51,497 bases of DNA from a virus (taxonomy: Duplodnaviria > Caudoviricetes). Where the stretch lies: IMG/VR virus record IMGVR_UViG_3300027887_000015, positions 1-51,497 of that record, one strand, 5' to 3'. Below the pieces are notes generated by a model, which saw only the letters and a list, made by a program, of their open reading frames with translations, was not told where the DNA came from and made no database searches. Of the stretch, positions 16,160-42,998 are shown in pieces. A program made the translations under genes and the position numbers. The number at the start of each line of letters is the position of its first letter. The stretch's first letter is position 1.

Positions 16160-17101
16160 TTAGCCGATATTGTTGTACTTCACCACTGCGTCCTCTTCCT
16201 CGATCTCGCAAGCAACACGAGTCGTCAAGACGATGATGAACTCACGAGTACGGATATCCTTATCATACTCAATGGTAACCCTTCTCTGAATTCCAAAAAT
16301 GAGGTTGAGCGGATTGACAAACAGACCCTTGGCAGCGGGCATCATCGGTGCGCCAAGAACCTGCGAGCCCCATGCGTACAGCGGGCCGAGTCCCTGCAGC
16401 ATCGTATCGCCAAGACCCGTCGCACGATCCGAGTAGGTATCACGCATCTCGGTCTCGTTGTCCACCGAGAAAAAGTGAACCAGCTCGCCACGATTCCGGA
16501 GGTACTTATCCGGCATCGCTTTGACGGCATTCTTCAGCAGGGTCTTGCTGATCGTAGCACCACCAGCATCAACAACATGCGTAGTGACCAGTTTCATCCA
16601 GCCGTCAAGAAGAGCGAGGTAGGGGTCACCGGAAATCGAGTCGCCCAGAAGAACCAGCTCCTCCAGATCGAGAGCGGCACGCTCAGCAATCAGAGTAACG
16701 ATGGTGCTATGCAGACCACCGGCACCACCAGACTCTGACGAAGCATTGATGTTGCCGCGCTCGATATTATCCTCAAGCACTTCGTAGGGGATTCTGACTT
16801 CAGCCATCACCTCTTCAGTGTTGAGCACAACCTGCGACAGATCAGGCTTCGCACGATCACTCGGATCAAGTGCCGTAACAGAGACTGCCGGGCGCAAAAT
16901 TCGACTACCGAAGCCGATCTTATTGATCTTCCTCGTTGGCGAATTCATGGTGACGACACGAGCACTGTTGAGAACAGTGGGGCTGTCAATCAGAGTGCGG
17001 ATGAAACGATCAGTCTGCTCGGGGTTGAGAAGACCACCATCGGACACGAGATCGCTAAGAGCGATGTCTGCCTTTCGAACAAGTTCAGCATTGCTGCTCA
17101 T
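16160..17101 (-). CDS. Major capsid protein (HK97 fold, PBSX XkdG-like)
   Basis: GGLLNPEQ..RFI, LEDNIE, DLEEL.L.GD, P.NLIFGIQR motifs; N-terminal LVRK/ADI probable maturation site. Confidence 0.92.
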   Translation of the reverse strand: MSSNAELVRKADIALSDLVSDGGLLNPEQTDRFIRTLIDSPTVLNSARVVTMNSPTRKINKIGFGSRILRPAVSVTALDPSDRAKPDLSQVVLNTEEVMAEVRIPYEVLEDNIERGNINASSESGGAGGLHSTIVTLIAERAALDLEELVLLGDSISGDPYLALLDGWMKLVTTHVVDAGGATISKTLLKNAVKAMPDKYLRNRGELVHFFSVDNETEMRDTYSDRATGLGDTMLQGLGPLYAWGSQVLGAPMMPAAKGLFVNPLNLIFGIQRRVTIEYDKDIRTREFIIVLTTRVACEIEEEDAVVKYNNIG

Positions 17102-17121: not shown

Positions 17122-18189
17122 TTAACGAGAACGCATTTTCTGGCGAGGCAGAAAAGCCGTGTCGAACAGACCAGATCGCGGATCACTGTCCGCTTTCTTC
17201 GTCGCAGTGGTAGGCTTGTCTCCGGGAGGGATAGAACCAACCACCGTGCCTTTGACGACAGCCTGAGCCGATTTAGCCATTTCCTTCGCCTCAGCCATCG
17301 ACGCTTCCAGAGATTCACTCTTTTTGCTGATGTCTGAGACTTTGTTGCCGAGATCCTCGATGCTCTTCACCACCGACATAACCTGCTCGGTGACGGGAGC
17401 AATAAGCTTCTCCGCAATCTTTTGAATTGCCTCTAGCGGCAACTCAGCTTGAACAGGAGCCACAGGCTCAGTAACAGGGGTCTTCTCATCAACCTTGTCG
17501 TCGTCCTCTTCCTCCTTTGCAATGCCCTCGACAACCGAATACACGTTGTCAGCAGCATTGACTAGCGAGGCCGGAAGAGCGGAAGCATAGTCCTTGATGA
17601 GAGCACCAAACGCAGCCAGTGCCTGCTCAGCCTTTGCAACCTTTTCCTCTGTCGGGCATTTGCCACAGGAGAGAATCTCCATAGTGGAGTCAAACATGTG
17701 CCCGAAAGCCAGATCGATCCCAGGAAGATAGCCGTCTGCCTTAGTGACAAACGAGGTATTCTCCGTAGGAAAATCTTTGACTAGAGCCAGGAGGTGAGAA
17801 TTCATCCGGATGATATCAGCACCCTCGGTATCACCCTGCTTGAGGATGATGGTTCCATCTTCCTGCTCAGCAGCATCATCAACGGAGAAGCCATTGTCCT
17901 TGAGGATCTCCTGCACCTTGGCAAGAGCCTCGGTCTTCTCGACTACGATACCCACGATGGTCGGAACAACCTTCTGCTCAATCTCAGTCTCAGGCGAGAC
18001 TGCCTTTTCGACTTTCTCGTCGGGAGCAGATTCCCGCTTGAAAATTTTCTCCAGATTGATCATGGAATCAGTCTCCCGTGACTGTTTGATAATTCGGAAT
18101 GGAATCCTATTAGCCCCCCTCTCGACTAGAGAGATGTAGCTGACGGAAGGATTCTCCAGCTTTACCGACTTGAGTTTTACCTTTGCCAT
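17122..18189 (-). CDS. Capsid scaffolding protein
   Basis: Between protease and MCP; ISLVERGANRIPFRIIK start; acidic and coiled-coil; many hydrophobic-x-K motifs. Confidence 0.75.
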   Translation of the reverse strand: MAKVKLKSVKLENPSVSYISLVERGANRIPFRIIKQSRETDSMINLEKIFKRESAPDEKVEKAVSPETEIEQKVVPTIVGIVVEKTEALAKVQEILKDNGFSVDDAAEQEDGTIILKQGDTEGADIIRMNSHLLALVKDFPTENTSFVTKADGYLPGIDLAFGHMFDSTMEILSCGKCPTEEKVAKAEQALAAFGALIKDYASALPASLVNAADNVYSVVEGIAKEEEDDDKVDEKTPVTEPVAPVQAELPLEAIQKIAEKLIAPVTEQVMSVVKSIEDLGNKVSDISKKSESLEASMAEAKEMAKSAQAVVKGTVVGSIPPGDKPTTATKKADSDPRSGLFDTAFLPRQKMRSR

Positions 18190-18228: not shown

Positions 18229-18825
18229 TCAAACTTCTTGAGGGACCAGTAACTCTATGTGAGAAAAGCGATGGTTGTGCTCGGAAACTGTGTCTGTGAC
18301 CGTCCCCTTTTTGATGGTGTGCTTGTGACCCTTTGCTTCGTCAGTAACCCCACCAAGGAAGTTTCCGTCTGCGTCGTAGGAAACGTAGAAGCGATGTGAA
18401 TGCCCATCGTCCGCTTTAGACGTAAGTCCCTCTAGAACAGGGGGGATGTCAATCTCCACCTCAGAGTTGGTCTTGGTGACGAAGGCTTCGATGGACAGAC
18501 CGTTGATCTTGCCACTCTTGATGGCAGACCAAGTCTCATCATCTGGAACGTGAATGCCCACCACCCAAGAACCGGGGATGGGAAACGTGTCGTCTCCCTT
18601 GCGGGAGATGAAGGACTCGACTACAGACGCACCAGGAACCAGCTTGTTGGTGTGCTGAACATCGATCTGGGAAACCTTCTTGTCACGGAGAAACTTGTAA
18701 GCCATCTCCCTAATGGAAACGGCATCCATGTGTTCACCGTCTGAATCTGGGATTCCGGGCACATAAACTTCTGCCCAGACAATGCGTTGTTCTTCTGATT
18801 CTGCAGCGAGTTTTAGCTCAGGCAT
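18229..18825 (-). CDS. Prohead protease, XkdF-like serine protease with His-rich C-terminus
   Basis: VWAEVYVP..PDSDGE, IDVQH, VVESFI, GSWVVG, W..IKSGKINGLSIE motifs. Confidence 0.88.
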   Translation of the reverse strand: MPELKLAAESEEQRIVWAEVYVPGIPDSDGEHMDAVSIREMAYKFLRDKKVSQIDVQHTNKLVPGASVVESFISRKGDDTFPIPGSWVVGIHVPDDETWSAIKSGKINGLSIEAFVTKTNSEVEIDIPPVLEGLTSKADDGHSHRFYVSYDADGNFLGGVTDEAKGHKHTIKKGTVTDTVSEHNHRFSHIELLVPQEV

Positions 18826-18849: not shown

Positions 18850-19056
18850 TTACGACCTCCTAACGTACAGTGCAGTAGCTTGCTCTTTTGTCAGCCCGAG
18901 AAACTCAACGGCATAGCGTATAGTGGCTGCTTGAATCTCTGACCCCTCCCAGTCGTAGGAGGAAAGAATTTCTTCGTGCAGGGGCTCGTCGTATTTGACA
19001 TCTCCCTGAATAAAGAGAGCCCCTGGCTCTGGCAGCTTAGGGGGTGACGTAGGCAT
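18850..19056 (-). CDS. Small partner protein overlapping the MuF-GNAT gene end
   Basis: 68 aa, mildly acidic, overlaps the last 20 nt of the upstream gene. Confidence 0.6.
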   Translation of the reverse strand: MPTSPPKLPEPGALFIQGDVKYDEPLHEEILSSYDWEGSEIQAATIRYAVEFLGLTKEQATALYVRRS

Positions 19057-20308
19057 TGAATCGTGCCATGGCTAGTGGGTTAGAAAAATCCAGCACTCCA
19101 TCCCAATGAACACCCCGCAAAATTCTTGCCCCCCACTGTGGTATGTCCGAGATAGCCCACAGGGCTAACTGATCACCTTGCCTCAGGCGAGCTAGGGCGG
19201 CTGTGGCTACCTGCTTCACATCCGCCGGAAGCCCGAGACCCTCATTGATGCGCCAAGCTATCGTGTTGAAGAAGCTACCCCAGACCTCAGAAGTGATCTT
19301 AAGATCACTCGGTAGCCATCCGTACCTTGCCCAAGCATAGGCACCGATATCGATGTCCGCATTGAGCGTAATCTTCGTCACCCCCAACGACTTGGCAAAG
19401 TCCACCAAGGTGCTGATGACTTGCTTGCCAACACCCTTACCCTGTGCCGACGCAGGCAGACCTATGCCAGCAAGGTACAAGCTGCTGTCTGCTTTCAGGA
19501 GGAAGATCAGATCAGAAGATTCTTCCAGGCCAAACATTCTCCCGTTAAACCAGAACCCAAGATTCCCATCCATGCCTGAGCGCAGACCAAAATGGTATTT
19601 GCGGCTCCACTCCTCTAGATCTTGCTGAATCTCCCTGAACGAGACACCGGTCAACAGCTCTACCACCTCACGAGGATCACGCTTAACAAGCTTGTTCCAG
19701 GCATCTACAACCTTAGCCTCGGAAAATGTCTCGGGAAATGCTGCCTTGATGTCAGCGTCAGTGAAATTAGTGGACAAAGGCAACGGGAACGCTGCCTGCC
19801 ACGAAGCCGTCTGCTCAATGGTCGGGACCTTGTCCTCCGGGACCAGGATGCCTCGACAGTACGGATGATAGGGGGGGATGTGCCAGTTGCTGCGAATGAT
19901 ATCAATATCATCCATGTCCGCCAGGGCATCGAGAGAGGCTTTGTCCTTCTTCGGCCAGGGCTGCAAACTTCTTAGGTCGTCCGGATTGTCAGTGGCTAAG
20001 ATGATATCGAGTGCTTTACTGGCATCGGAGACAAAGAACACCTTGCCATGCATGATTTTGCAGACCGGGCAGATCTTGGTGTCGAGTTGCTCGCTCACTG
20101 CGTACCTCTGCACATCAGTGGCGTTAGCTTCCAGCGTGAAGCCATAGGCCGACACCCGAGAGGTGTGCAGACCTGAAATCATTTGCAAAAGCTTGTCGCC
20201 TTCCTTCCGGAAGCTCACGAACTCCTGAGCTAGGTTGAGCTTGGTCTCTGCCTTACGGATAGGAGACTTGGTCAAACACTCTGCGAGTTCAAGAGTCAGA
20301 TCAGCCAC
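19037..20308 (-). CDS. MuF (SPP1 gp7-like) head protein, C-terminal part, fused to a GNAT acetyltransferase domain
   Basis: LD.KICPVC..MHGKVF and PPYHPYCRG MuF motifs; QGKGVG acetyl-CoA motif and GAYAWARYGW; GTG start at 20308 after GGAGG. Confidence 0.85.
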   Translation of the reverse strand: MADLTLELAECLTKSPIRKAETKLNLAQEFVSFRKEGDKLLQMISGLHTSRVSAYGFTLEANATDVQRYAVSEQLDTKICPVCKIMHGKVFFVSDASKALDIILATDNPDDLRSLQPWPKKDKASLDALADMDDIDIIRSNWHIPPYHPYCRGILVPEDKVPTIEQTASWQAAFPLPLSTNFTDADIKAAFPETFSEAKVVDAWNKLVKRDPREVVELLTGVSFREIQQDLEEWSRKYHFGLRSGMDGNLGFWFNGRMFGLEESSDLIFLLKADSSLYLAGIGLPASAQGKGVGKQVISTLVDFAKSLGVTKITLNADIDIGAYAWARYGWLPSDLKITSEVWGSFFNTIAWRINEGLGLPADVKQVATAALARLRQGDQLALWAISDIPQWGARILRGVHWDGVLDFSNPLAMARFNAYVTP

Positions 20309-21482
20309 GATCCCTCCAAGCCTTAGTCTCTGGGTCGAAGGTAGCCACCGGCTCAACAGTCACAATCGTCACCTCTATAGGACCGCGCAAAGCATTCCAA
20401 CGATAAGTCTCCTTCCTGACACCTACCACCCGGAACCTTCCAGCAGTAATAGCTTCGTTGTACACGTAACCAGACTCTTTTGCCTCACTAGCCTTGTTCT
20501 TGCTGTACGCTACTATCGGAGTACCTTTGACAAACTCCAATACCGTTGGCAATCCTTCTTGATCCGATTCCTCACTACGAATTCCATACGAGGCAGAGTT
20601 ACCACCTTCTCCTGAAGTTGCTAGCAAAGGAACATCAAAAGTGTCCCCTATCTTCCAATCGATTTGCCGTATATTTTCAAACCCATGGTACAAAAGCTCT
20701 TCAGATCCAACCGTATCAGAGTGGATAGCAGAGAGCATCTCCTTAGCCACTGACGCTAAACCAGGATCGAACATACCACCAGATAGTCTGTACCCTGAGT
20801 ACCCAGGTATCGCCATCATGTCCGCAGCAGCGGTGGCTATGGTTCTGCTGTAGCTATGGGAATACCCCCAGGAATCTGAATACTTATGCCGAAAGATCTT
20901 ATGGCTAGAAGTATCTGGCGGTTTATAACCGGGAGGGCTGTAGTAACTGCTGACAAACAACTTCGGACCAGAGGTAGAACAGAACTGCCCTCCCTTAGGT
21001 GAACCGGTAGGCTCATGGCAAGGATTGCTCTTTTTAATCTCTAGCTTGCCATTAGACGGAGAGAGCGGCGTAGTGTCCTCGTAGAGCGAGTGCTTGGAGA
21101 TCAAGTCCAGGAGGCTGCGCCGGAGATCAGCCTCTAGCTGGTTGGTGACGTAGTTCTTGAGCAGAACAGTGGTGCGCTCGATGTGCTGATCCAGGTCCTG
21201 CTTGTTAAGGTCCGTCTTCTTCGGACTACCATTGGTTAAACGGGACGCACCAAAAAGTAAGGCAGCGGTGGTGTAGTACCTGACCGCTGCCTTGTTGTCG
21301 TCTACGATCTGATCTAGAGAGAGCCGATTGGCTAAGCGGGTCGCGGTTCCATAGTCGGAGTGGAATAGGGCTTTGCGTACTGCGCCCTCAGTCTCAACAA
21401 ATATCCTGTTCCAGGATTTCTGCAGGTTCTCGTACAGGGACTTCTCGATAGCCAAGAAGGCTTCGGCATTTACCATGGTCAC
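20301..21482 (-). CDS. Helical (probable MuF N-terminal) region + tag + ADP-ribosyltransferase-like domain
   Basis: Helical first ~145 aa; IKKSNPCHEPTGSPKGGQFC tag; LLYHG...LLATS...YNEAI.GRFRV ART-like motifs. Confidence 0.65.
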   Translation of the reverse strand: MTMVNAEAFLAIEKSLYENLQKSWNRIFVETEGAVRKALFHSDYGTATRLANRLSLDQIVDDNKAAVRYYTTAALLFGASRLTNGSPKKTDLNKQDLDQHIERTTVLLKNYVTNQLEADLRRSLLDLISKHSLYEDTTPLSPSNGKLEIKKSNPCHEPTGSPKGGQFCSTSGPKLFVSSYYSPPGYKPPDTSSHKIFRHKYSDSWGYSHSYSRTIATAAADMMAIPGYSGYRLSGGMFDPGLASVAKEMLSAIHSDTVGSEELLYHGFENIRQIDWKIGDTFDVPLLATSGEGGNSASYGIRSEESDQEGLPTVLEFVKGTPIVAYSKNKASEAKESGYVYNEAITAGRFRVVGVRKETYRWNALRGPIEVTIVTVEPVATFDPETKAWRDRG

Positions 21483-22789
21483 GCATCGAACTTGATCACT
21501 TTCTTCAGCTTAACAGCTTTTCCAGTGTGTGTTCGCCATTCCGACATAGAGTGCATCTGCACACCCTTTGCTCCAGGTACTGGCTCAAACTCCAACAGGC
21601 TTATCTGCTTCGGGTCTAGCCTAGCGAAGGCTTCAGTATCGTTGAAGATGAAGAGAGGATCTGTGGGTCCTCCGGCTGCTTCACGAAACCACAGCCACTG
21701 CTTCATAAACTCCATGCGATTGGAGAGCATTTCTTTCGGAGAGAGCTTTCTCTCGTAGGTAGCAGCCCAGCCTTCACCTTCATACCCAGGCAAATAACCT
21801 GTGCGCTTCCAGCCCTTGTCTGTCTCCAGGCTAGGGTCCTCGAAAATATCAGCCTGCTTAGTGCGTATCCCAGTACGCAATTCCTGCATCAACGCGGTGT
21901 CTCGGTCTGAGCCATCATGGATACCACCGTATTCCCGGATGTCCCTTATCCACCCCTTATCGGCCCCTACTCCACGAGTAGCTTGATCTAGGAGAGCATC
22001 CACATCAATCCGGCCATTCAAGAATGCGTGAGTGAGACGCATAGCATTGCGAATCTCCAACGCTACCTTGGGATCATCAGTGAAGGACACCGTAGTATCG
22101 TCCCCTCCACCAAGACCCAAACCACTTTGCTGCGAAAGCTCGTCACGAGACTTCAGCCCTTCCTCGACCACCTTATCTCTTGCTGTAGTAACGTGATACA
22201 GCGTGGCAGGGAGGTCCTTGTATCCATCAGGATTGCCAGAGTCTGAGCCTCTCCAACCAAGTTTCTCTGCTTCAGCAGCAGGAAGAGTGCCTAGCGATAC
22301 CGCTTCACCTATCTCACGATTCCATTGCCGTACCAGCTTCTTCTCTTCCTGGTACAGCCCCTCATTCATCTTGCCATCGGCACCAACCCAGTTGATTTCT
22401 GGCTTCTTGCCAAAACGACCAGCAGAGCAAAACTGACCTCCCTTACCACTACCCGCAGGTTCGTGGCAAGGGTTTCCTGAGCCCTTACGAGTACGAGACA
22501 GCCTACGCCCTTGCAAAGGAAAAAAATCAGTAGTCAAGCCCCCTGAATCAACATGTTGCTTTGGAATAAGGTCGAAAAAATTACGGTTCTTTCTAGGAGC
22601 TACAACCCTGCTCTTAAGAGGAGGGTCTATAGAATACTGTGGTTCACTGGTGGGCTCTATTTCATCATAGTATGAGTCCAAGCTATCCAACAAAAGATTA
22701 CGTCTACCGCGAATTTTTGACGCAAAAGTAAACCTCCCCTTAGCATCATGGTAGGGGTTGTATTTGAGGATGGTGAAGTATTCAATCAT
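21479..22789 (-). CDS. Doubly tagged protein with C-terminal ART-like domain
   Basis: ILKYNPYHDAKGRF and TRKGSGNPCHEPAGSGKGGQFC; LYHVT...GLKS...VSFT...SEWR. Confidence 0.6.
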   Translation of the reverse strand: MIEYFTILKYNPYHDAKGRFTFASKIRGRRNLLLDSLDSYYDEIEPTSEPQYSIDPPLKSRVVAPRKNRNFFDLIPKQHVDSGGLTTDFFPLQGRRLSRTRKGSGNPCHEPAGSGKGGQFCSAGRFGKKPEINWVGADGKMNEGLYQEEKKLVRQWNREIGEAVSLGTLPAAEAEKLGWRGSDSGNPDGYKDLPATLYHVTTARDKVVEEGLKSRDELSQQSGLGLGGGDDTTVSFTDDPKVALEIRNAMRLTHAFLNGRIDVDALLDQATRGVGADKGWIRDIREYGGIHDGSDRDTALMQELRTGIRTKQADIFEDPSLETDKGWKRTGYLPGYEGEGWAATYERKLSPKEMLSNRMEFMKQWLWFREAAGGPTDPLFIFNDTEAFARLDPKQISLLEFEPVPGAKGVQMHSMSEWRTHTGKAVKLKKVIKFDA

Positions 22790-23184
22790 CCTTCTTTGCC
22801 TTTACCTTTTGCTGACGCTTTCCTCTTGTCGTATTTGTCCATCAACTCCTTGGCTTTCATAAAGTAAGCATAGGTGTTGTCGAAGGTGTCCTTACGAGGA
22901 CCTAGTGCAGCAGATGCCCGTCTACGAATTTTAGCTCTAAGGTAGTCCTCTTTGTTTGGACCGTGCAATCGATCTAAAACCTCGTCAATCTCCCCCTGCA
23001 TACGTACTTGTCTAGCTTTCTTGTTTTCTGGCTTAGCATCTGCAGCAGAGTCTGTCTCTCCTGGTCCGTGTTTACCACTAGAACAAAACTGCCCACCATC
23101 TGGGCTACCTTTAGGAGCGTGACAAGGGTTTCCCTGGGCCTTCTCTACCTGGAACAAAATACCGGCACGGTGAAAGATGCTCAT
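22786..23184 (-). CDS. Small tagged basic helical protein
   Basis: VEKAQGNPCHAPKGSPDGGQFC followed by ~95 basic residues; coupled on both sides. Confidence 0.7.
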   Translation of the reverse strand: MSIFHRAGILFQVEKAQGNPCHAPKGSPDGGQFCSSGKHGPGETDSAADAKPENKKARQVRMQGEIDEVLDRLHGPNKEDYLRAKIRRRASAALGPRKDTFDNTYAYFMKAKELMDKYDKRKASAKGKGKEG

Positions 23185-23450
23185 TAGTCAAAATCCTCTG
23201 AGTTGACAAGCCCAGGTCCTAGGTAGTCCTCACAGGTCTTGTGAAAGTCACACCAAGTGATATTAGGATCACTGGTATCAGCCGCTGATCGATGCTGAGG
23301 ACAATCCCACTGCTCACACTCAGCACTGCAAAAAGTATCGTGGATCATTTCTTGCGCTTCTTCCAACAGTCCCAACAAACTATGCCACTGCTTAGAAGGA
23401 AAAAAACTCCTACTATGGCAAACGTCACCATCCCCCAGATTTCTAGCCAA
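23184..23450 (-). CDS. Small Cys-rich hypothetical protein (start may be the internal MIHDTFC)
   Basis: DTFC...C...C..H...C..H..C; stop overlaps the next ATG. Confidence 0.5.
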   Translation of the reverse strand: MARNLGDGDVCHSRSFFPSKQWHSLLGLLEEAQEMIHDTFCSAECEQWDCPQHRSAADTSDPNITWCDFHKTCEDYLGPGLVNSEDFD

Positions 23451-23501
23451 TAGATTTGGGCATCGATAGCAGCGTGTTGCATGTAAGCAAAATACAACCT
23501 C

Positions 23502-23714
23502 CTAACCCCTCGGATTAGAGGGTCCTACCCACTCATCATTGACAATCCAGCCTTTTTCAACAGCCGCCTTGTAAACCGGAAGGTGACGGAAGGTATCCAA
23601 ATCAGTAACAACTGACATGAAGGCCGGAGATTTGTAGGGTGGGAGATCCCAGGTCCTCTTGGTCCAATCTGCGTTATCCAAGTCAGCATCGATGTTATAC
23701 GCTTTACGAGCCAT
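23502..23714 (-). CDS. Small partner protein downstream of the JAB-ART polyprotein
   Basis: GAGGTG RBS; 70 aa, NADWTKRTWDLPPYKS...FRHLPVYKAAV. Confidence 0.75.
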   Translation of the reverse strand: MARKAYNIDADLDNADWTKRTWDLPPYKSPAFMSVVTDLDTFRHLPVYKAAVEKGWIVNDEWVGPSNPRG

Positions 23715-23722
23715 GACGCACC

Positions 23723-26518
23723 TCAGAAGGGTATGTCCTTATCTAAAGGAGATGTATATCTACCAGGATTCTCTTCAAGCATTCTTTTACGTGCTGCTTT
23801 TACCTCTGCTGTTACTGCTTCAGCAGTTGTCTCATAAGACCCATCCAATATGGCATTGTAGGCAATGAGGGCAGGCTGCGCTTCACGAGCAGTCTGATAG
23901 TTATCCCCTGTCATACCATACTGAGGATTCTCATCAAACTCTTTTCCAGCAATCGTTGCCTGTACCCGCTGCTCCTGCCTGTATTTATCTGCTGTCTCGG
24001 GTAGAGTAGCCGCTGTAATGCTCATTATCGGGTCCCCTCTACCACCATTAGCAGTCGTTGGTACAAGGGATATGTACTTGGCTTTCTGTACTCCTCCAAG
24101 TACCACAAACTCATCCTCTCCTTTGCACCCAAATCCCGTCTCACATGTAGACAATATTTTAGAGGCTGGAACCTTGATCATAAATACGGACCCAGTTTTG
24201 TTGTACTTTGAGTACTGGCTATGGGATGTCTCCGCTACAAATCCTTGGGCAGAATCAGCGGAGTAAGCAAAAGAAGACATAGGCTGAAGTTGAAACTCTG
24301 TCTCTCCCACAGAGACAGTATAGCTGGTAGACATCACAGGAAGATTACGATCATCAGTCCCAGGCACAGAGAAGGTAATCGACTTCTGTGCCTTTCCATA
24401 TTCTGACTGCGGAAGATTAACCCCCCTAAATAAGATCAGCTCTTTGATCCCAGCCTCGGCAAGAAGCTCCTGGGTCAGATCGTACTGAGCCCTAAGAAAC
24501 TTGCGGTAAAAAGTCTCTTTGGAAGTACCTTTACCATACAGAGCCCAGGCTTCATTGTATTGATAGTCATCCGGAGTATTTGAATGTAGATGACCCATAT
24601 CTGCCAGATCAAGACCAAACTCATCCTTTGCTGCTAGCTGCAGAACTATAGACCTGGCATCGTGGTCCCCAGAAGTATTTGCCCACCTATGAATTAACTC
24701 TCTTACCTCGTCGTACATCTTTTCATGTAGGTATTTTTCCTTCTCCTCTGCATACAAGTCTGGGTCTAGATTACTTAGTACCTCCTCCAACTTTCCTGTA
24801 GAGGAAAGCAAAGTAACCATATCCATCTTATCAAACACTGCTGGGTTGTCTGCGCTTACAGGACCTAAACGATTGGCTACCTCTTCTGTGTCTAGAGCAA
24901 GCATTTCTCTGTGGTTTACAATGTGCCCCTCAGGAAACACTTTATCTAACGCTTCCTTCATCTCCAACAAAGAAAGCCGTGAGGACAGCTTCATTAAAGC
25001 AGTAAAAGAAGTAAAGCCCTTATCCCCAAGATACCCTTCAAACGCTGTCATGGCTTCTGGGTCATTCAATAACTTGTTAGCCACCCTGGCTTGAACACGT
25101 ATCTTAGACTTTGCACCGGAGGCATCGTCATCATTTTTACCCCACCGAGTACCAAATAGCTTCTGTAGCTTCTTCAGGTCCTCTTGAGATCTTTGTATAT
25201 CGTTTTCCGATATCTTGCCTTCACTAGCCATCCCACACACAGACAGGGGGGCAAACTTTCCGCTCTTCGGATCGTGGCAAGGGTTTCCCTCTCCTTTAAG
25301 AATGGAGAGGAACTTTGTCACCTTGTCCTGCTTCTTCTTGAGGGCTTTGGTTAGCCTCTTACCCCACTTGTTAAATATGACAATCTCTCGATACAGCTTA
25401 GCCATATCTCTTTGCGCTAGGGGTACTTTGTTGAGGATGACCCCAGACTTGATGTAGGTCCTGGCTACCGAATCATCTATTAGCGGAAGGATGTACTTGT
25501 GCTCATCAGATATGACACTAGCAAACCCCTTTTGATTGGTGAGCACCCCCTGTATTTCCTTACGCAGAGACTCAAAACTCTGACCATCCTCTTCAAGGAT
25601 TTCATTTGCCCTTCTGAGATGATCACCTTCCTTGTGAATGGTAAAAGACTTGATGAAGCCAAAATCAGCTAGCACCTGGAGGGCTAAGGTACGCTCCATA
25701 GCCTGATAGGCTTTCTCACAATCAAACTGAGTGGCACACTTCTTAGAACCAACATGCCCCTGTGAAACACCCTCCAACATAGGAGCTTTGTACCGCAGGG
25801 TGTAATATGCAGCCCCCATAGCGGCATTGAATACTCCCTTCATCCAAATGAACGCTTCACTAGCATCTGAACTGTAGGCACCTAAATAAGCAGGATCGTG
25901 ATCCACCATGCCGTACCAGCCATCCGGCATAGTGACTCCCATCAACCCACCATCAGCACTGCAGGCGAGCATCTCTTTCGCCCCCCACAGTCCTGCTACT
26001 AAACAATCTCCTACCGACAACCCTGCTAGTTGATTGGGGTGGTTGTGAAGAACCACCCTTCCCTCAAGGTTTGCCAATTGCTCAGCAACCATAGGAACAT
26101 GATGTGCAGAGCCCTCTATAAACAGATCGTCAGCCGTACCATCCTTGGTTGCGAAGAGAGCTTCTGTAGTTTGCTTGCCAGCATTTTCGAGGTCAGCTTC
26201 ACGCTGTATCAGGCTCGACATCTTCTCCACGAGCCAGTCTTTTATCTCCAGCGAATGCTTAGGCCCGGCTGACCCCAAATTGCACACCTCTGAGGGCGCA
26301 AATTGCCCGCCCTTGCCTTCAGGAGCCCCGGCAGGGTGGTGGCAAGGGTTACCACTGGAATCGGCCTTAAAAGCCTTATTTGGGGTGAGAAACACTACAT
26401 CACCATCAGCAAAGATGACTTTGGCAAGCTCGTAATCCTGGTCGCTACACGGAGTGAAATCCCGCTTCATGTAGACTACGGTTGCGTCTCTACCGCTGAC
26501 AGTGGTGTTAACGATCAT
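23723..26518 (-). CDS. Polyprotein: ~50 aa leader + tag + JAB/MPN domain + tag + R-S-E ADP-ribosyltransferase
   Basis: E...HNHPNQLAGLSVGD (JAMM-like); LFRGV...QPMSSF...EDEFVVL (ART); two tags. Confidence 0.78.
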   Translation of the reverse strand: MIVNTTVSGRDATVVYMKRDFTPCSDQDYELAKVIFADGDVVFLTPNKAFKADSSGNPCHHPAGAPEGKGGQFAPSEVCNLGSAGPKHSLEIKDWLVEKMSSLIQREADLENAGKQTTEALFATKDGTADDLFIEGSAHHVPMVAEQLANLEGRVVLHNHPNQLAGLSVGDCLVAGLWGAKEMLACSADGGLMGVTMPDGWYGMVDHDPAYLGAYSSDASEAFIWMKGVFNAAMGAAYYTLRYKAPMLEGVSQGHVGSKKCATQFDCEKAYQAMERTLALQVLADFGFIKSFTIHKEGDHLRRANEILEEDGQSFESLRKEIQGVLTNQKGFASVISDEHKYILPLIDDSVARTYIKSGVILNKVPLAQRDMAKLYREIVIFNKWGKRLTKALKKKQDKVTKFLSILKGEGNPCHDPKSGKFAPLSVCGMASEGKISENDIQRSQEDLKKLQKLFGTRWGKNDDDASGAKSKIRVQARVANKLLNDPEAMTAFEGYLGDKGFTSFTALMKLSSRLSLLEMKEALDKVFPEGHIVNHREMLALDTEEVANRLGPVSADNPAVFDKMDMVTLLSSTGKLEEVLSNLDPDLYAEEKEKYLHEKMYDEVRELIHRWANTSGDHDARSIVLQLAAKDEFGLDLADMGHLHSNTPDDYQYNEAWALYGKGTSKETFYRKFLRAQYDLTQELLAEAGIKELILFRGVNLPQSEYGKAQKSITFSVPGTDDRNLPVMSTSYTVSVGETEFQLQPMSSFAYSADSAQGFVAETSHSQYSKYNKTGSVFMIKVPASKILSTCETGFGCKGEDEFVVLGGVQKAKYISLVPTTANGGRGDPIMSITAATLPETADKYRQEQRVQATIAGKEFDENPQYGMTGDNYQTAREAQPALIAYNAILDGSYETTAEAVTAEVKAARKRMLEENPGRYTSPLDKDIPF

Positions 26519-27501
26519 TGTTTGTGTGCTTCGTAGTAGGCTATCTGCCCAGCCAAATAGGCTTCCCGTATTGACTTATCCATCCATGAGCTTTTTACAA
26601 ACTTGAATAGGTCTGTCCACGAGGACCTTTCTGGAGTAGAAAGCCTAGATCTTCGAGCGGCATACTCTGCAAGAGTCTCCGTTACAGGAGAAAGAAAATC
26701 GATGTAAGTAGTGGTTTTACGAGATACGTAATCGTTATAGGCTTGCCACCACTTACTACTGTAAGCAGTAATCCCATCCTCTTTTTTCAGCCTGTCAAAC
26801 TTCGCAAACATGAAATTGTGAAAATTGTAGAGGTGTGAGTACTTGTCTTTGTACTTCTTATCCATCTTGGGCCATTTGCCGGTCTTGTAATCCATCATAG
26901 GATTTGCCCTTACCGGCATAGGCTCCCCTCTCCTCCTCCCTCCTTCATGCTCCCAATCGCTCCACGCACTTTGGTAGTCGTCCATGGCTTTTCGTTCTTC
27001 TCTTTCAAACGCCTCAAAAGTTGCACGAAACATATGATGCATTATTTCGTGGGATACAATGGAATTTACATCGCTAATGAGATTTTGCTCTGCGTTAATC
27101 CTGCGCCACTGATCACCAGAGGAATACTCTGACATAAAATCCTTAACCGTAATGGGTAAGTAAATGTCTATCTCCCCCTTTCTAGGAGTGTCATGGGTAT
27201 ACGCAACACCAGCAGCATCATGCGTCTCCCCATTAAGATCAAAGGTATACCCCTTATCAGTTACATGGATCAACTCTAGAGGGTATCCCAGCGTAGAGGC
27301 TACAGACTCAACTTGCTTAATAAGCAGCCTCTCAAGGGGGTGTAATTCCCTGTTTGAGTCCTGAAGATCAAGATGTATTTTGTCTCCCAAAGAATGAGCT
27401 ATGTCATGCCTAGACATTCCACAAGATGCCAAAGGAGCAAACTTGCCCGTCTTAGGATCGTGACAGGGGTTCCCCTCTCCTTTGAGAATGGCGGCAAACA
27501 T
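26515..27501 (-). CDS. Tagged zincin metallopeptidase
   Basis: ILKGEGNPCHDPKTGKF; HEIMH (HExxH) and downstream ETLAE. Confidence 0.78.
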   Translation of the reverse strand: MFAAILKGEGNPCHDPKTGKFAPLASCGMSRHDIAHSLGDKIHLDLQDSNRELHPLERLLIKQVESVASTLGYPLELIHVTDKGYTFDLNGETHDAAGVAYTHDTPRKGEIDIYLPITVKDFMSEYSSGDQWRRINAEQNLISDVNSIVSHEIMHHMFRATFEAFEREERKAMDDYQSAWSDWEHEGGRRRGEPMPVRANPMMDYKTGKWPKMDKKYKDKYSHLYNFHNFMFAKFDRLKKEDGITAYSSKWWQAYNDYVSRKTTTYIDFLSPVTETLAEYAARRSRLSTPERSSWTDLFKFVKSSWMDKSIREAYLAGQIAYYEAHKQ

Positions 27502-27680
27502 TAGGGGCCTATCTTGGTATCAGGGTTCAACATGTCCTTAGCGTCTTCCAGAGCCATCAACACCTCTGGATTAGCTGGCATGTCCTCAAGCTGACGAATC
27601 CAAGCTTCGATCTCTCCCTTTGAAGAGTACCTGGAGATAGGCGGATCGATCAGGTAGTAGCTATTGTTTTGCGGTTTCAT
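27501..27680 (-). CDS. Small acidic partner protein (59 aa, below ORF-track cutoff)
   Basis: GGAG RBS; MKPQNNSYYLIDPPISRYSSKGEIEAWIRQLEDMPANPEVLMALEDAKDMLNPDTKIGP*; TAATG coupling to the next gene. Confidence 0.7.
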   Translation of the reverse strand: MKPQNNSYYLIDPPISRYSSKGEIEAWIRQLEDMPANPEVLMALEDAKDMLNPDTKIGP

Positions 27681-27683
27681 ACA

Positions 27684-29897
27684 TCACTCCATGAAATCGA
27701 AGATCTTGCTGTTACGAATAGCTTCCTTAACCTCAGGGTCGGGATAGTACTTGATGGCATTCTTCACTCGTTTGACCATCGTATCCCTCAAGAGGTTAGC
27801 CATAGAACTTTCGTGCCGTCCATTGAGGTAGCCAAGCACATCTGGACCCAGCTTATACTCAAGCTTGATGAGCCCCAGCTTGTCCAGTGCCTGCACCATG
27901 AGGAGATTATGCGTGTACTGAGCTTCTGTAATTGATATGTCTCCTAGCATGATGGAGGCACTTAGCAGTTGGTACATGCCCTGATCCAACATCCTGTGTG
28001 TCTCTTTCAAAACCCCAGGAAGCTTGCGAGCATTCTCATTGATCGTAGCCCGATAGAACGAACCATCTGCACCCACGGCTTCCACTGCCCGCAGGTTTTG
28101 CGTAGTGGCAAACATGATGTCCTGGATTGACAACGCTGACCGGCTAGGATGGTTGTGGACCATCACCCAGGAGTTGTTGTCGGCTGCAGAGCCCTGAGAC
28201 ATCCGGGCCAAATCTTCCTCTGAGAATTCAATCTCAGTCGGAGATCCGGAGGTGCGCTGTATGACGCTCTTACCATTCCCGTCAATCAAGACCCCGTGCT
28301 CGTTACCATCCTCTTCCCCTAAGAACGACACCGCTTTCCTCGCTGCCTCGATGCCCGCCTCCTGCTTCTTGAGGACCTTGTTGAACTTTTTTGCAGTTCT
28401 TCCTCCCTTCAGAGGTAGTTTCAACTGCCTGGGCTCACCGAGTGAGCCACCCCCCTTCTTGCCACCACTGCAAAACTGCCCACCACCAGGACCAGCCGGG
28501 TTGTGGCACTCGTTACCCTTGAAGATCTCTTCGAACCGGCGGATAAGCTCTCGTACCCGAACCTCCAGCAGCGTCTTTCTTCCATCACTGATATCGAGGT
28601 GCTTGTCCTTGATGAAGTCGTCAGCAGACTTGCCATACGTCTCTGCCAACTTCGCAAACTGCTTTTGCCCAAGATCGAGGACCTTAGCTAACTCTTCATT
28701 GGCATTAGTACGAGTCACGTTAACGACTAGATGATCCTGTTGCCAAGACACCCCATCGTATTTCGTACCCACCATGCCTAACGTAAACTTAGGCAGCAGA
28801 CCGGACACCTCGGGCACTGCCTCCTTCAGCCGTGCCTTCACGGAATCAGTCAGATCTTTCTGGGCATCGATGTTGGCAATCATCCGCTTCTGCGCTTCGC
28901 TAACAGAGATCTTCTGCTGCGCCAGATCCACCAGCACCTTGGTATTGGACCCGACGTACCGGATCAACGGAGGCATCTTCTCCTTGTGGAAGAGAGCCAA
29001 GTTGTCAGAGGTGCTAAACGCTGAAAGCTCTGCCTCGGTTTCCCAGTTGATGCCAGTGACATCGTGAGAGTAAATGACCTGTGATGCTAATTGCACGAAG
29101 TCACGGCTGAAGTACTTCTCCATCATCGGAGCAACGTGTTCCTGGAAATACTGGGCCGACCAACGAGGATGGTCGGCATCAAGAAAGGCACGAGACGGAG
29201 GAGTCAGATACCCTGCGTCATGGTAGACCGCAGCAAGATTCATCAAGGCTTGATTAAGCGGGGTGTTGTGAGCCCCCGGCAAAACAGCAAGGATATCCCT
29301 GCTCATCTGAGCATCACCATACAGATGATGAATGCCGTGATCCCCTAAGGTCCTACCCTGAGACTCTATGTCCTGAGCCAACAAATGATCCGTGGCATCC
29401 ATCGAGATCTCACGAACACCCTCTTCAGAAACTCCGGCTGCCTTCAGGGAATCTTGCAGAGACTGCATCATGGTGCGAGCCAACTGACGCGCCTCCTCAG
29501 GAATCAACTCCACAGCAGAATCGATACGCTTGGAGATATCAGCCGCCAGATCCTTGGTATACGGTCTTTCCCCCAAACTGGCTAGCAGCTCATCCATGCG
29601 AGCCTTAACCGTGACACGAGGGTTGCCGTAAGCATCCTTTTCTTCACGAGACAGGCTCTTCCACTTCGCCCGCGACTCCATGAAAGGCTGCGCTTTCCAC
29701 TTAGCCGCATCAAAATCCGAAGGACTGGCAAACTCTTTACCGGGGGCTTCCCGAAGCTTCTTGCCTTCGGTCCCGTCTCCTCGGTAATGCGTAGCCTTGG
29801 GCTTTGATCCCGCCCCAGGCTTCTCGCAGAATTGCCCACCATCAGGCTTGCCCTTAGGCTGGTGACAGTCGTTGCCTTTGAGAATCTTGGCTAGCAT
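27684..29897 (-). CDS. Polyprotein: tag + HD-domain phosphohydrolase + tag + JAB/MPN domain
   Basis: Start at 29897 after GAGGTG; DHGIHH...YHDAGY...DH...SHD...SDN (HD); NEHG...HNHPSRSALSIQD (JAMM). Confidence 0.8.
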   Translation of the reverse strand: MLAKILKGNDCHQPKGKPDGGQFCEKPGAGSKPKATHYRGDGTEGKKLREAPGKEFASPSDFDAAKWKAQPFMESRAKWKSLSREEKDAYGNPRVTVKARMDELLASLGERPYTKDLAADISKRIDSAVELIPEEARQLARTMMQSLQDSLKAAGVSEEGVREISMDATDHLLAQDIESQGRTLGDHGIHHLYGDAQMSRDILAVLPGAHNTPLNQALMNLAAVYHDAGYLTPPSRAFLDADHPRWSAQYFQEHVAPMMEKYFSRDFVQLASQVIYSHDVTGINWETEAELSAFSTSDNLALFHKEKMPPLIRYVGSNTKVLVDLAQQKISVSEAQKRMIANIDAQKDLTDSVKARLKEAVPEVSGLLPKFTLGMVGTKYDGVSWQQDHLVVNVTRTNANEELAKVLDLGQKQFAKLAETYGKSADDFIKDKHLDISDGRKTLLEVRVRELIRRFEEIFKGNECHNPAGPGGGQFCSGGKKGGGSLGEPRQLKLPLKGGRTAKKFNKVLKKQEAGIEAARKAVSFLGEEDGNEHGVLIDGNGKSVIQRTSGSPTEIEFSEEDLARMSQGSAADNNSWVMVHNHPSRSALSIQDIMFATTQNLRAVEAVGADGSFYRATINENARKLPGVLKETHRMLDQGMYQLLSASIMLGDISITEAQYTHNLLMVQALDKLGLIKLEYKLGPDVLGYLNGRHESSMANLLRDTMVKRVKNAIKYYPDPEVKEAIRNSKIFDFME

Positions 29898-29905: not shown

Positions 29906-31693
29906 TCAATGCATATGATCGGCACAGCAACCAGCAAGCTCGTTAGTCCCATCGAGCTTCTTGGCAACGAACGTCTTGACCGACAACATGTTGTCAAACA
30001 CGCGCCGATAAGTCACAGGCAGTGCATCCACCCGAGACAGCACCAACAGCCGCTCAGGGTCAGACATCGCACCATCCTCAAGACCCACGGCAACAGACCA
30101 CTTGAGTACTAGGTCGGCTATGTCCTCGGGGTGAACCTCCTGCTTCCCTACCGTCTGCCGACGATCAGGCTCCTGCTTCACCGGCTCAACATCATTGCGG
30201 ACGTTGTTCTTGCCCGTAGGAAGAGAACCCTCGGTGCCCATGAAGTTCTGGCTCTTGCCCGCCGGAGCAGCCATCTCCGCGTTCTTCTTCTCAGCCTCTT
30301 CAGAGTAGAGAAGATGCAGCGAAGCGATTTCATTGAGAGCCTTGATGAAGTCCTCACCAGAGATCTTCGGCATTCCTAGCTCCAGTGCCTTCATCTGGAT
30401 ATCCACATTACGCAGATTCACTGGGTTGGAGACATACAGATACTTCTTAGCCCCCAGCTCCGGGAGCAGCTTCTTGTTGATAATCTCGTCAAACTCCACC
30501 CGCTCCGGAGTAAACACCTGAGCCTCGGCAACCATGTAACTGGTCATTGCCGTGGCGAAGTTCATGTCGGAGGCTTTGCCCAGGAACAGGGTGGGAAGCC
30601 TAAACGCTACTCGGACATGGTCCTCGCAGTTCTGGTCATACCCCTGAAACATGCTGTCCTGGGACCGGAAGTCACCAAAGCGTTCCGTGGAAACCTTGAC
30701 CGAACCCGCTGAATCCAGCGTGCCTCCTGAGGCTTGCACCTCGACCACCGCAATACGATTCTTGGATTTCGCAGAGCCAGAAAAGAACGTCTGCAACTGA
30801 TCTCGTACATCCTCAGTCAACAGACCACCCTGCACGAAGACCACTGCCGGAGGAACACCACCGGAGTCGAAGAACTCCAGGTTGAATTCTTCTCCCTTGC
30901 GTGATCCCAGGATGCTAGGTAGCTGGTTGATCCAGCGAGGCAGACCATAGGCAGTGGTAGTGTCAGCGATGCAAGTGAAGTGCAATACCTCGCTAGCCAT
31001 ATCAGTCATTGCTAGCTTGCCCTCTGCCCATCTACCAGTCTCACGATTGAGGTCACGAGAGCAACCGAATTCTTTGAAGAAGATTGTCTTCGTGCCGACC
31101 TTCTGCGCGAATCTACGCTCGCGTGCCATGTAAGTGGCAGTGACGTTCTCTCCGAAGCGAACGATGGTCTTCTCTACCGACACAGGGTCATCGAGCATCA
31201 CCAGTCGCATTGACAGACCATCGAGATGACGCAACAGGAGTATCTTGCCCTCAGGATTTCTCATCACCTCCAGATAAGCGTTGCCAATCGTCTCCAGGTC
31301 ATACCGGAGCTTGCGGCGGATAGAGAGGAAGGACTCACCAGGGAAGGGCTCGTTGAAGAAAGCCTCAAGCCGCTTCTTCTCTTCCAGGTCATCTCCGCTC
31401 TGAGGGTCAGCCAAGGTGAGGGTGTACCCCGTGCCATCGATGTTGGTCTCCATGGCAAGGACACACTGCAGCAGGATATTGTTACGTTTGACTAACGCAG
31501 AGAGTGTAGACAGCGTGAAAGGCGGGGCAACAATTGCACTGCCGGGATTGAGGACCCCTTCTCCGTAGGTAGGCAGGAACTCGTCCTCTGCCTCCAGCAC
31601 CACGTTGACCACCAAGGTCTTGGTGTCTGCCTTGAGGACCTTCTTTGAAAGCGTAACATGGCTACGCGGAGGAATGATGTTGGTCTCTGGCAT
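29906..31693 (-). CDS. Portal protein (PBSX family)
   Basis: DLETIGNAYLEVMRN, YGLPRWI, N.EFFDSGGVP, AFRLP.LFLG...NFATA motifs. Confidence 0.92.
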   Translation of the reverse strand: MPETNIIPPRSHVTLSKKVLKADTKTLVVNVVLEAEDEFLPTYGEGVLNPGSAIVAPPFTLSTLSALVKRNNILLQCVLAMETNIDGTGYTLTLADPQSGDDLEEKKRLEAFFNEPFPGESFLSIRRKLRYDLETIGNAYLEVMRNPEGKILLLRHLDGLSMRLVMLDDPVSVEKTIVRFGENVTATYMARERRFAQKVGTKTIFFKEFGCSRDLNRETGRWAEGKLAMTDMASEVLHFTCIADTTTAYGLPRWINQLPSILGSRKGEEFNLEFFDSGGVPPAVVFVQGGLLTEDVRDQLQTFFSGSAKSKNRIAVVEVQASGGTLDSAGSVKVSTERFGDFRSQDSMFQGYDQNCEDHVRVAFRLPTLFLGKASDMNFATAMTSYMVAEAQVFTPERVEFDEIINKKLLPELGAKKYLYVSNPVNLRNVDIQMKALELGMPKISGEDFIKALNEIASLHLLYSEEAEKKNAEMAAPAGKSQNFMGTEGSLPTGKNNVRNDVEPVKQEPDRRQTVGKQEVHPEDIADLVLKWSVAVGLEDGAMSDPERLLVLSRVDALPVTYRRVFDNMLSVKTFVAKKLDGTNELAGCCADHMH

Positions 31694-35596: not shown

Positions 35597-35626
35597 ATAG
35601 TAATAGTAGTTTGAGGTGCTTGTCAA
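35597..35626 (-). promoter_or_regulatory. Sigma70-like promoter
   Basis: TTGACA-N18-TACTAT at a gene boundary. Confidence 0.65.
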
Positions 35627-36312
35627 TCCCACGGTGGCATTCTGTCCCCCCAGACATGATCAACACCCAAGGGAGCTACTACATCGTCTCTCCCGTTGTC
35701 GAAGGTGTAGCCATAGCCGGAGTAGGAGCTGTTGTAAGTCGAAGCGTAACCCATCACCAGTGGCTTGGAAGAAGCCACCTTCTTGACACCAAAATGCTTG
35801 TTCAGGAATTTGACTTGGCTATCCGACTCCACCGACTTGACGCAGTAGTGCTCACGCACGTAACTGATGGCATCCACCTCGCCCAGCATCACCTTGACCA
35901 GGGCAGCGAATAACGTACCGGTACGACCATGCCCACCAATGCAGCCTGCGTGGACCTTGGACCCGGCTACAATTTGCTCAGCCAGATAGTCGATCAGCTT
36001 CGTAAAGCTCGCAACATCTTTGGGAGCAGAGTGATCGGTGATGGGATACAGCAGAGCAAACCCAGGCTCCCATGGGTATGCTTTCTCGATGTAGGTCATC
36101 GAGTGGTCCAAGCCAACATAGATGTCTGCGTCTTTAACCACAGGACTGTGGCAGGAGCCACCATGCACCACCAAGTCTCCAGTCAACTTGAGCGGCGGAT
36201 GAGACAGGTAGCAAGGGGTATACGCCTTGCTATCCTTCTCTAACTCAAACGGCATGGAGGTCTGCCCATTCAGAATCTGTCTGGACATTCTCCGCTCAGA
36301 TGCCTTCTTCAT
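35623..36312 (-). CDS. Protein-tyrosine/dual-specificity (CX5R) phosphatase
   Basis: YPITDHSAP acid loop, HAGCIGGHGRTG P-loop, VES.SQ. Confidence 0.88.
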   Translation of the reverse strand: MKKASERRMSRQILNGQTSMPFELEKDSKAYTPCYLSHPPLKLTGDLVVHGGSCHSPVVKDADIYVGLDHSMTYIEKAYPWEPGFALLYPITDHSAPKDVASFTKLIDYLAEQIVAGSKVHAGCIGGHGRTGTLFAALVKVMLGEVDAISYVREHYCVKSVESDSQVKFLNKHFGVKKVASSKPLVMGYASTYNSSYSGYGYTFDNGRDDVVAPLGVDHVWGDRMPPWD

Positions 36313-37334: not shown

Positions 37335-37361
37335 TGCTCCCTCCTCGGAGACTCAACCAGG

Positions 37362-37391
37362 ATACTACTGGAGAGGTGTAGAGTTTGTCAA
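37362..37391 (-). promoter_or_regulatory. Sigma70-like promoter
   Basis: TTGACA-N18-TAGTAT in an intergenic gap. Confidence 0.65.
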
Positions 37392-41724: not shown

Positions 41725-41905
41725 CGTCATCTTCCTTCTCGGGCCAATACTCCGAGTCCTCATCTTCATAGTCGTCCTCTGGCTCTGGAAATTCGCGCCA
41801 GTCTACCTCTTCATCATAGCCGACCTCTTCGAAGTGTTCGCGCATCAACTCTTCCGCTTCTTCTTCCGAGATTTGACCGTAAGGAGTTTTGCTATCGGCG
41901 ACCAT
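41708..41905 (-). CDS. Very acidic small protein overlapping the topoisomerase 3' end
   Basis: 65 aa dominated by D/E (EEEAEELMREHFEEVGYDEEVDW...). Confidence 0.65.
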   Translation of the reverse strand: MVADSKTPYGQISEEEAEELMREHFEEVGYDEEVDWREFPEPEDDYEDEDSEYWPEKEDDDEAGV

Positions 41906-42998
41906 ATGCTGGGGTCCACATAAGAGTTCATTGCCATGGTGGGGGTGTTGCCCAGAAAGTCAGAGACAACACGCAGCACCTCCTTTTTCACTGCCAACGC
42001 TTCGGTCTTCGTCACTGGCTTCGGAAGACCTTTCAGTGTCTTCCTGGCTAGAGCAGTCCCATACCAAGTGCGAAAGTCTTTAGGACTGAAACCATTGCCA
42101 GCAAGAGACTTGAATACTCTCTTTACTGTCGAGTAGCTGGCATCAAACAGTGGCTCTCCTTCTTTCTTCTTCTTCATCCTGCGCTCAAGGTAGCGAGCAA
42201 TACTACCGTCTTCAAACTGCTTCGTTTGCTGCACACCACTCTTGCCGGTGAAAGTAAGCGTTACCTTGTTGCCCTCTACAGAGACATGCTCCTTCTGCAA
42301 AGTGCCCGCTCCGAATGCCTCGACATCAGCTTGTGTATCGTCACCAGAACCAACACGCAATCCAGTCTTGGCAATGATGCTGATAATAGCCGCTGCATCT
42401 CTGGTGATGTGGTTCTCTCTACCGGACACCATCAAGTGATGAGCTTCTGACTTGATCTTGGGGATGATCTTGCCAAAGGCTTTAGCCCGAAAATACTTCG
42501 CCGCCGCTGCTCGATCTTTGTGAGACTGCAGGTAGTAGGATTGCTGACGACCTTTCGAATCCAGGCCAATCGCTTGTCGATGACCCTCAGAATCAGGATT
42601 CAACTGGACATCAGTAAGCCCAGGTCTAACCTTCAGCGCATTCAATCTTGCCTGGGACTCCGGAGGCAAAGGCTCACCATCAGGACCTACCCAAACCTTG
42701 TCGGAGTTCCTAGTTGCTCCTTTGCCAGGGACATGACAGAACTGCCCTCCACGAGATGATCCAGAAGGCTCATGGCACGGGTTTCCGCCACCGTTTTTTT
42801 TTGAGCCTTAAAGATCGCAGAGAGATCCGTTTTCGTAACGGTGTTACCAGTGCGACGTTGCAACTCAGCGATAAACTTATCCTTTGCGTCTTCCTGTTGC
42901 TTCGATGTCAATACCTCGCTGTACTGCAAGTAAGAGGCTATCCACCGTCGCACGAATGAGGTCACGTTCTCCTTGTGAAAGTCGTCTAGAAACTCCAT
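41845..42998 (-). CDS. Tagged DNA topoisomerase IB (bacterial/poxviral type), interrupted by a -1 frameshift at an A9 tract
   Basis: LDSKGRQQSYY, GLRVG (R), FTGKSG (K), PKDFRTW (R), LGNT (N), NSYV (Y); the frame extends upstream to GGNPCHEPSGSSRGGQFC and joins MEFLDDF...AIFKAQK via A9 at 42794-42802. Confidence 0.8.

Follow-up and report, generated by a model that had tools for sequence, protein, structure and literature searches.

A short portable peptide heads unrelated enzyme modules beside the head genes of tailed viruses

The 51,497 nt tailed-virus sequence IMGVR_UViG_3300027887_000015 (Duplodnaviria; Caudoviricetes), analysed over its full length and called the window here, carries among its head genes a block in which predicted enzymes of unrelated type open with one common short peptide. 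This peptide, the tag, has the consensus N-P-x-H-(loop)-G-[RKQ]-F and occurs nine times in 18850-29897, always on the minus strand and in open frames. All nine motifs quoted in a first-pass annotation of the region were found in frame, and a strict pattern gave 10 matches over the six frames of the window and none in any of 300 shuffles (mean 0.0, maximum 0), with the eleventh tag matched by a looser pattern. Two of the eleven tags lie away from the block, each at the start of a module in a gene 11-13 kb from the head cluster (Table 1). The proposed location of the block between portal and prohead protease was borne out by the Pfam and PHROG assignments of the flanking genes, while the leading hydrophobic-x-Lys, which the annotation had counted into the tag, had to be set apart as a separate element, likely a protease site. 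The full phage genome is roughly 100 kb in size (longest contig 100,504 bases), so that the window covers about half of this tailed phage, whose nearest cultured relatives by capsid protein are Stenotrophomonas phages DLP3/DLP5 (64%), followed by Vibrio and Rhodobacter phages. The interval between portal and protease holds one gene in DLP5 and none in RcZahn, and the 11-kb block is therefore an expansion.

Table 1 Tagged genes and their neighbours in the window. ART, ADP-ribosyltransferase; ORF, open reading frame; arrows mark predicted cuts.
Positions	Strand	Gene or module	Tag, Asn to Phe	Basis
42877..44397	-	Stand-alone ORF: ILK, tag 11 + GP88 (radical-SAM-like)	44317-44367	Pfam GP88 E 3e-6
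41845..42995	-	Topoisomerase IB headed by tag 10	42739-42783	Pfam Topoisom_I E 4e-27
29906..31693	-	Portal protein		Pfam Phage_portal E 9e-11, PHROG 12
27684..29897	-	Two-module ORF: ILK, tag 1 + HD; IFK, tag 2 + JAB-like	29829-29873; 28473-28514	
27501..27680	-	59-aa untagged ORF		ORF list; no family match
26515..27501	-	Stand-alone ORF: 7-aa leader ending ILK, tag 3 + zincin (HEIMH...E)	27439-27471	
23723..26518	-	Two-module ORF: AFK + linker, tag 4 + JAB-like; ILK, tag 5 + ART	26300-26350; 25253-25285	
23502..23714	-	70-aa untagged ORF		Homologue adjoins a related ART module in another locus
22786..23184	-	132-aa ORF: VEK, tag 6 + small basic domain, no known family	23086-23130	
21479..22789	-	ORF: ILK, tag 7 + ~90-aa spacer; TRK, tag 8 + ART fold; terminal VIK↓F site	22730-22759; 22430-22474	
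20301..21482	-	MuF N-terminal half (~150 aa), IKK, tag 9 + VIP2-like ART	20982-21026	
19037..20308	-	MuF core + untagged GNAT		TIGR01641 E 3e-6, Pfam GNAT E 6e-5
18229..18825	-	XkdF-family prohead protease, predicted cutter		Pfam Peptidase_S78_2 E 4e-21
17122..18189	-	Likely scaffold, many hydrophobic-x-Lys sites		Position, PHROG 27672
16160..17101	-	HK97-fold major capsid protein, VRK↓AD at residues 8-12		Pfam/PHROG

Three pattern scans of IMG/VR returned at least 385 distinct matches (360 of the NPxH type, 14 DPxQPR and 11 ExxHPR), and the NPxH-type tags amount to at least 504 once later loci are added. BLASTP grouped the 283 tag-headed modules into 161 families, and a Pfam scan of 265 representative modules, up to 560 aa each, gave a match for 84 and none for 181. 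The recognised cargo comprised 21 VIP2-type ARTs, 13 ART-PolyVal or PARP domains, nine zeta-like kinases, four topoisomerases IB, four zincins and two each of glutamine deamidase, RelA/SpoT, GNAT, 2H and PI3/4-kinase-like domains. The topoisomerase family carries several tag classes, which were present in 9 of the 23 top matches and in 0 of the 31 lower ones, many of these tagless proteins being named bacterial topoisomerases IB. The diversity of the modules and the exchange of tag classes on one enzyme family both agree with the earlier suggestion of a portable peptide. Our own hidden Markov models (HMMs) recognised no head domain in 163 of the 223 tagged ORFs, which fits the idea of cargo that is not fused to MuF, whereas the other 60 carry their tags on modules fused to portal, MuF or protease. 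At least two tags were present in 49 ORFs, and the first tag lay more than 70 aa into the protein in 101 of 219. The longest example noted is a 2811-aa polyprotein with more than 10 tagged modules (L242:4314-12746). Among cultured-phage records one tag query gave seven matches, of which a Nitrososphaera (archaeal) provirus with a tag on its portal and a metagenomic myovirus are real, and a second query of cultured phages gave none. Matches in Streptomyces ran antisense to annotated genes and one in Mycobacterium was a partial look-alike; these were discarded. Other peptides, GHxFxGNQ[WY], GAPxGNxNA, HxxHDQKTHG, VSFGGDRSEAG and GGPGSG, likewise stand right after a protease-like Lys site and were noted in nine loci.

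A link of the tag to head genes, as the annotation supposed, was visible in a sample drawn blind to the tag. The best 80 of 434 capsid-related loci, chosen by capsid similarity alone, gave 61 unique loci with 67 matches upstream on the portal side (376 kb) versus one downstream on the tail side (367 kb). Four of the 67 were false, falling in the His-rich tail of XkdF, and antisense matches numbered 0.

The residue two positions before the tag Asn is Lys in 245 of 339 tags and, with this residue taken as P1 of the predicted cut, P3 is hydrophobic in 86% and P1′ aromatic in 204 of the 339; in the window 2-5 small residues separate the Lys from the tag. The pre-tag residue agrees within contigs (334 of 416 tag pairs; permuted mean 222, maximum 273) and covaries with the head protease. 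Tags with a Lys majority were found in 32 of 36 contig clusters with XkdF versus 9 of 24 with another protease (Fisher p 4e-5), all nine of the latter having an HK97-type S78 enzyme; in 52 of the 112 contig clusters the protease was not in view. Pre-tag Asn goes with a PHROG 760/DUF2213-like protease (3 of 4 clusters). An Asp accompanies DUF2213, an Ala a second S78 group, a Glu PHROG 207, and either Arg or Lys the HK97-type enzymes, and the tag itself stays constant behind the sites of XkdF, HK97-type S78, DUF2213-like and ClpP-type proteases. The cleanest independent evidence for the cut site comes from the capsid N-terminus, where hydrophobic-x-K↓A is present in 119 of 120 homologues. In other lineages scaffolds and capsid leaders show matching non-Lys sites, and the scaffold and capsid sites are not followed by a tag. 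In scaffold regions picked post hoc, as were the residue classes, the tag residue ranked among the top 5 of 20 in 10 of 11 cases and 6th to 16th in seven valid controls. The covariation with the protease family and the capsid site together make a protease site in front of the tag likely, as the annotation had implied, and it is highly likely that XkdF cuts after hydrophobic-x-Lys. We found no paper on measured XkdF specificity; in its available part, PMC7824862 only proposes XkdF as a head-processing peptidase.

The Lys-type tags (n=245) hold at most 0.22 bits at P4-P13 and high information past the predicted cut. With almost no conservation upstream of P3, the element is not a T4-like removable leader, and the targeting analogy drawn by the annotation is inverted, as the conserved peptide follows the cut. 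A conserved leader upstream of the site was accordingly rejected as a general feature, F-x-x-I-L-K being present in a minority. Behind the tag Phe stand T/A/S and then a flexible Gly-rich linker of Gly/Ser/Thr. Of 28 tags with a Cys before the His, 27 also have one at most seven residues past the Phe, compared with 7 of 476 otherwise, and the His-Gly loops vary in length among tags, which together imply a hairpin with a fixed face; the tag thus likely folds as a small hairpin. In the window its synonymous codons vary (172 of 321 codons identical compared with 144.5 expected) and the genes overlap stop-to-start, indicating selection on the expressed peptide. Pfam gave no family at threshold for 60 tag fragments, a PDB sequence search with the tag profile gave no match, and when a 32-aa tag peptide was co-folded with two capsid subunits the score was 0.01. 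A supposed likeness to small-terminase DNA-binding motifs was also dropped: 59 of the 60 fragments had no Pfam family, one gave an unrelated sub-threshold match, and next to TerL there was no such motif.

We give about even chances to a reading of the tag as an address that stays on as a tether. Each enzyme module bears a hydrophobic-x-Lys site and, behind it, the N-P-x-H...G-[RKQ]-F peptide, whose likely hairpin would attach to the interior of the head during assembly and thereby load the module; XkdF is predicted to cleave behind the Lys, and the released enzyme would remain tethered by the peptide until its likely ejection with the DNA into the next host. Stand-alone tagged genes need entry into the prohead and the tag is their sole common element, which points to an address; the retention of a tag by every polyprotein module suggests that it also acts once the cut is made; an address remaining as a tether fits both. 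Judged from these sequence patterns, tagged proteins are quite likely present in virions, the enzymes are probably delivered to the host, and the chances that the tag serves as a loading and tethering handle are slightly better than even. Candidate binding partners are the shell lumen, the portal or the core.

Several observations weigh against this reading. The tag hardly changes between viruses whose capsid, portal and protease families are very different, a constancy that is difficult to reconcile with a single protein pocket, and in two AlphaFold models its pLDDT (predicted local distance difference test) is about 40, including one of the XkdF domain with its own downstream tag (~45). Where the tag sits in portal tails, MuF chains or protease chains, as in the 60 fused ORFs above, an address seems redundant. 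Conservation inside the tag is partly set by the search patterns, the free positions being the informative ones. Per-protein shuffles gave weak enrichment of scaffold sites (p 0.02-0.67; in the window 12 hydrophobic-x-Lys sites versus 9.1 expected, p 0.17), and as the contig clusters and Cys-bearing tags come from few lineages, the p-values overstate independence. Finally, GTDB gave 112 loci, 64 of them distinct, tag-bearing and with flanks, and a limited set of head-gene HMMs found a head gene in 33 of the 64. Several of the loci lacking one resemble chance matches; of 18 that were scanned, 10 stand amid housekeeping genes and the others near phage-like or unknown genes. Tag homologues away from head loci, which the annotation had named as evidence that would speak against its idea, therefore exist in part, as orphans amid housekeeping genes in alphaproteobacteria and others. 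They may be prophage relics, hitch-hikers, or cargo that gene transfer agents or prophages could take up in trans. Several of nine such orphans have E-x-K before the tag. A low-complexity Bacteroidetes protein with QPRD..GRF and NPYHD..GRF, adjoining a DUF892 gene, was seen in two further loci (L364:1568-2545 and L389).

The near-invariance of the tag would be accounted for by a universal partner such as DNA, and the tag could act solely after the cut as an ejection pilot, its then N-terminal hairpin binding packaged DNA or the portal-tail channel and guiding the released enzyme out along with the genome, with loading by fusion or another signal. The tagging of every polyprotein module, even when fused to head proteins, and the flexible linker behind the tag agree with such a role, and DarA-Hdf of phage P1, as far as the account in PMC12810830 extends, binds capsid as well as DNA and is missing from heads that have emptied. 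Yet the tag is not basic (D and E are common and E is tolerated for R), the small-terminase likeness was not found, and stand-alone tagged ORFs would be left without a loading route; we consider a pure pilot rather unlikely. The mostly fixed spacing to P1 and the preference for an aromatic P1′ would also suit an exosite ligand: the tag would then form the prime-side half of a longer protease site and set the speed or timing of release, without a part in loading or delivery. This seems improbable, however, as the tag is missing at scaffold and capsid sites, one tag serves behind the sites of four protease types, and small residues intervene between Lys and tag in the window. It is very improbable that the tag marks a recombination junction at which silent spare cassettes are exchanged into MuF or portal. 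Contact-dependent inhibition (CDI) and Rhs toxins, with their VENN or DPxG boundary, offer a comparison, tag copies in two loci are near-identical together with 10-14 upstream residues, and in the window a tagged insert interrupts MuF at a Lys site that is also present in the intact DLP5 protein. In contrast to the junction DNA homology of CDI/Rhs cassettes, the window tags differ at synonymous positions and in loop length, tagged ORFs have coupled starts and the cysteines covary at the protein level; homology may aid shuffling, but it leaves the conservation unexplained. The least probable alternative is that tagged enzymes act in the producer cell or lysogen, in competition or to take over the host, the tag serving to bind a chaperone or some host factor: orphans amid housekeeping genes, the tag-like repeat of the Bacteroidetes protein and the MuF toxin Bxa, a lysogen fitness factor in the accessible text of PMC11699363, would fit it, but the pre-tag residue tracks the head protease, the tails of portal and protease bear tags, and tags lie almost solely on the head side.

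The address-and-tether reading has its closest relative in phage T4, whose internal proteins (IP) and Alt are, according to the available sections of PMC9026906, targeted to the head, cut and ejected. There, the capsid-targeting sequence (CTS) on IPI-III and Alt is cut by gp21 (PMC9026906, PMC12373910) and, like the tag, is a short peptide on unrelated head cargo including an ART; the prohead-protease site is common to cargo, scaffold and capsid, a parallel seen here at the sequence level with weak scaffold enrichment. The CTS as covered in these accounts is an N-terminal propeptide of 10-19 aa that is removed, whereas the conserved part of the tag lies past the predicted cut and would stay; the CTS is N-terminal only, whereas tags recur inside polyproteins; and the tag, unlike the CTS, spans unrelated protease families and an archaeal provirus. 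MuF polymorphic toxins (PMC3482391, PMC11699363) share the locus, the effectors ART, RelA/SpoT, glutamine deamidase and Ntox50, and small neighbouring ORFs, and the window has fusions of MuF to GNAT and of the MuF N-part to an ART. They are described as C-terminal MuF fusions, which does not apply to the five other tagged ORFs of the block and the two distant ones, nor to most tagged ORFs overall; up to nine modules per locus occur here, and the available portions of the MuF descriptions mention neither a common tag nor a protease-matched site. Phage polyvalent proteins (PMC5512222, PMC9503650) are likewise multi-enzyme proteins near head genes and predicted to be injected; their ART, zincin, GNAT, 2H, zeta-kinase and Nudix domains are joined to MuF, to portal or to head peptidase. 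Chains with at least two effector domains beside virion genes occur in the window as HD+JAB and JAB+ART, JAB being assigned by motif only. LPD and ART-PolyVal domains were absent from the window; LPD3 was found in 1 of the 265 tagged modules. As far as the cited accounts go, polyvalent proteins are possibly self-processed by metallopeptidases, whereas a repeated junction peptide with a prohead-protease site is found here. DarA-Hdf resembles the proposed system as processed anti-defence cargo on the inner capsid surface that is lost with the DNA, but in the available text of PMC12810830 these are dedicated structural proteins, and here the tag is portable. By these comparisons the system appears to work like T4 cargo targeting and to overlap with the MuF and polyvalent systems, and it falls outside the CTS class.

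Encapsulin cargo-loading peptides are short portable peptides that address unrelated cargo into an HK97-fold shell. They are not known to involve a protease site or ejection, and no sequence likeness to the tag was found, no test aimed at it being made. A description of the tag was not found in a literature search that left most subscription papers and the polyvalent-protein supplements outside, and the junction code on phage head cargo is real, widespread and, it appears, unpublished.

The choice of proteins co-injected with phage DNA is understood for few systems such as T4, and a portable tag makes the question testable by reporter fusion. The tag also provides a sequence rule for mining injected counter-defence enzymes, given the many modules lacking a Pfam match, and the pre-tag residue offers a way to predict the specificity of head proteases that are still uncharacterised, XkdF and DUF2213 among them. 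Tentatively, and with some doubt, bacterial and archaeal tailed viruses might share a lineage-independent cargo code, in which a virus-adapted protease site is joined to one of few interchangeable retained peptides (NPxH..GRF hairpins and the GGPGSG, GHxFxGNQ, GAPxGNxNA, HxxHDQ and FGGDRS classes) by which enzymes of any kind are loaded, retained and delivered. If so, injected proteins and prohead-protease specificity would be predictable from sequence alone, and tagged orphan genes kept by some bacteria could hitch-hike into capsids.

The domain labels given to the nine modules of the block fared unevenly. The ARTs behind tags 9 and 8 were supported, the former by ESM Atlas (ADPrib_exo_Tox, 0.95) and the latter by an AlphaFold model (pLDDT 82) with a Tpt1/KptA-type ART as its top structural match (Z 9.5, root-mean-square deviation 2.6 over 85 residues) and further ARTs behind it; for this module sequence searches and Foldseek gave nothing clear, with no match in the PDB and one MuF-containing protein in a viral library. 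The HD, zincin and tag-5 ART labels combine sub-threshold Pfam matches (HD E 0.04, DUF5700 peptidase E 0.03 and DRAT E 0.14) with catalytic motifs, R-S-E in the case of the ART. Both JAB-like labels come from an E...HNHP motif and mutual similarity, no library match being obtained. The HD module is 46% identical to one in another locus that carries a different tag variant. A 50-aa N-terminal domain ahead of tag 4 (26360-26518) also opens tagged ORFs in two other loci, and domains of this type come after zincin-like modules.

The MuF N-terminal half was identified by BLASTP to the N-termini of intact MuF proteins including DLP5 gp3. It continues into the IKK-tag-ART module, and the MuF core restarts at a GTG codon (20308) with an IRK↓A site near the start; where the window protein is split, the linker of the intact DLP5 protein contains a VVK site. 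Small ORFs of 59, 70 and 68 aa near tagged genes had no family match, and the first is a possible immunity or accessory protein. In an alignment of 25 XkdF domains the His and Ser were invariant; Foldseek with the XkdF model gave no PDB match, a herpes protease appearing at E 1.6 only. The C-terminal His-rich repeat tail of XkdF (18229-18450), with a weak YmaF match, is common to the clade.

The topoisomerase IB has a 102-aa leader ending in IFK that is out of frame with tag 10 across a run of nine A (42795-42803). The run shows no indel in four other assemblies, which may themselves be the source of this DNA, and is either a slippage site or a natural lesion; a hairpin 3′ of it was not significant as a frameshift stimulator (z -0.97). 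Upstream of the DNA polymerase, 35623-41037 encodes two DSP/PTP-type phosphatases, a 341-aa unknown protein and a truncated PPDK-like protein, a cluster that is also present in RcZahn.

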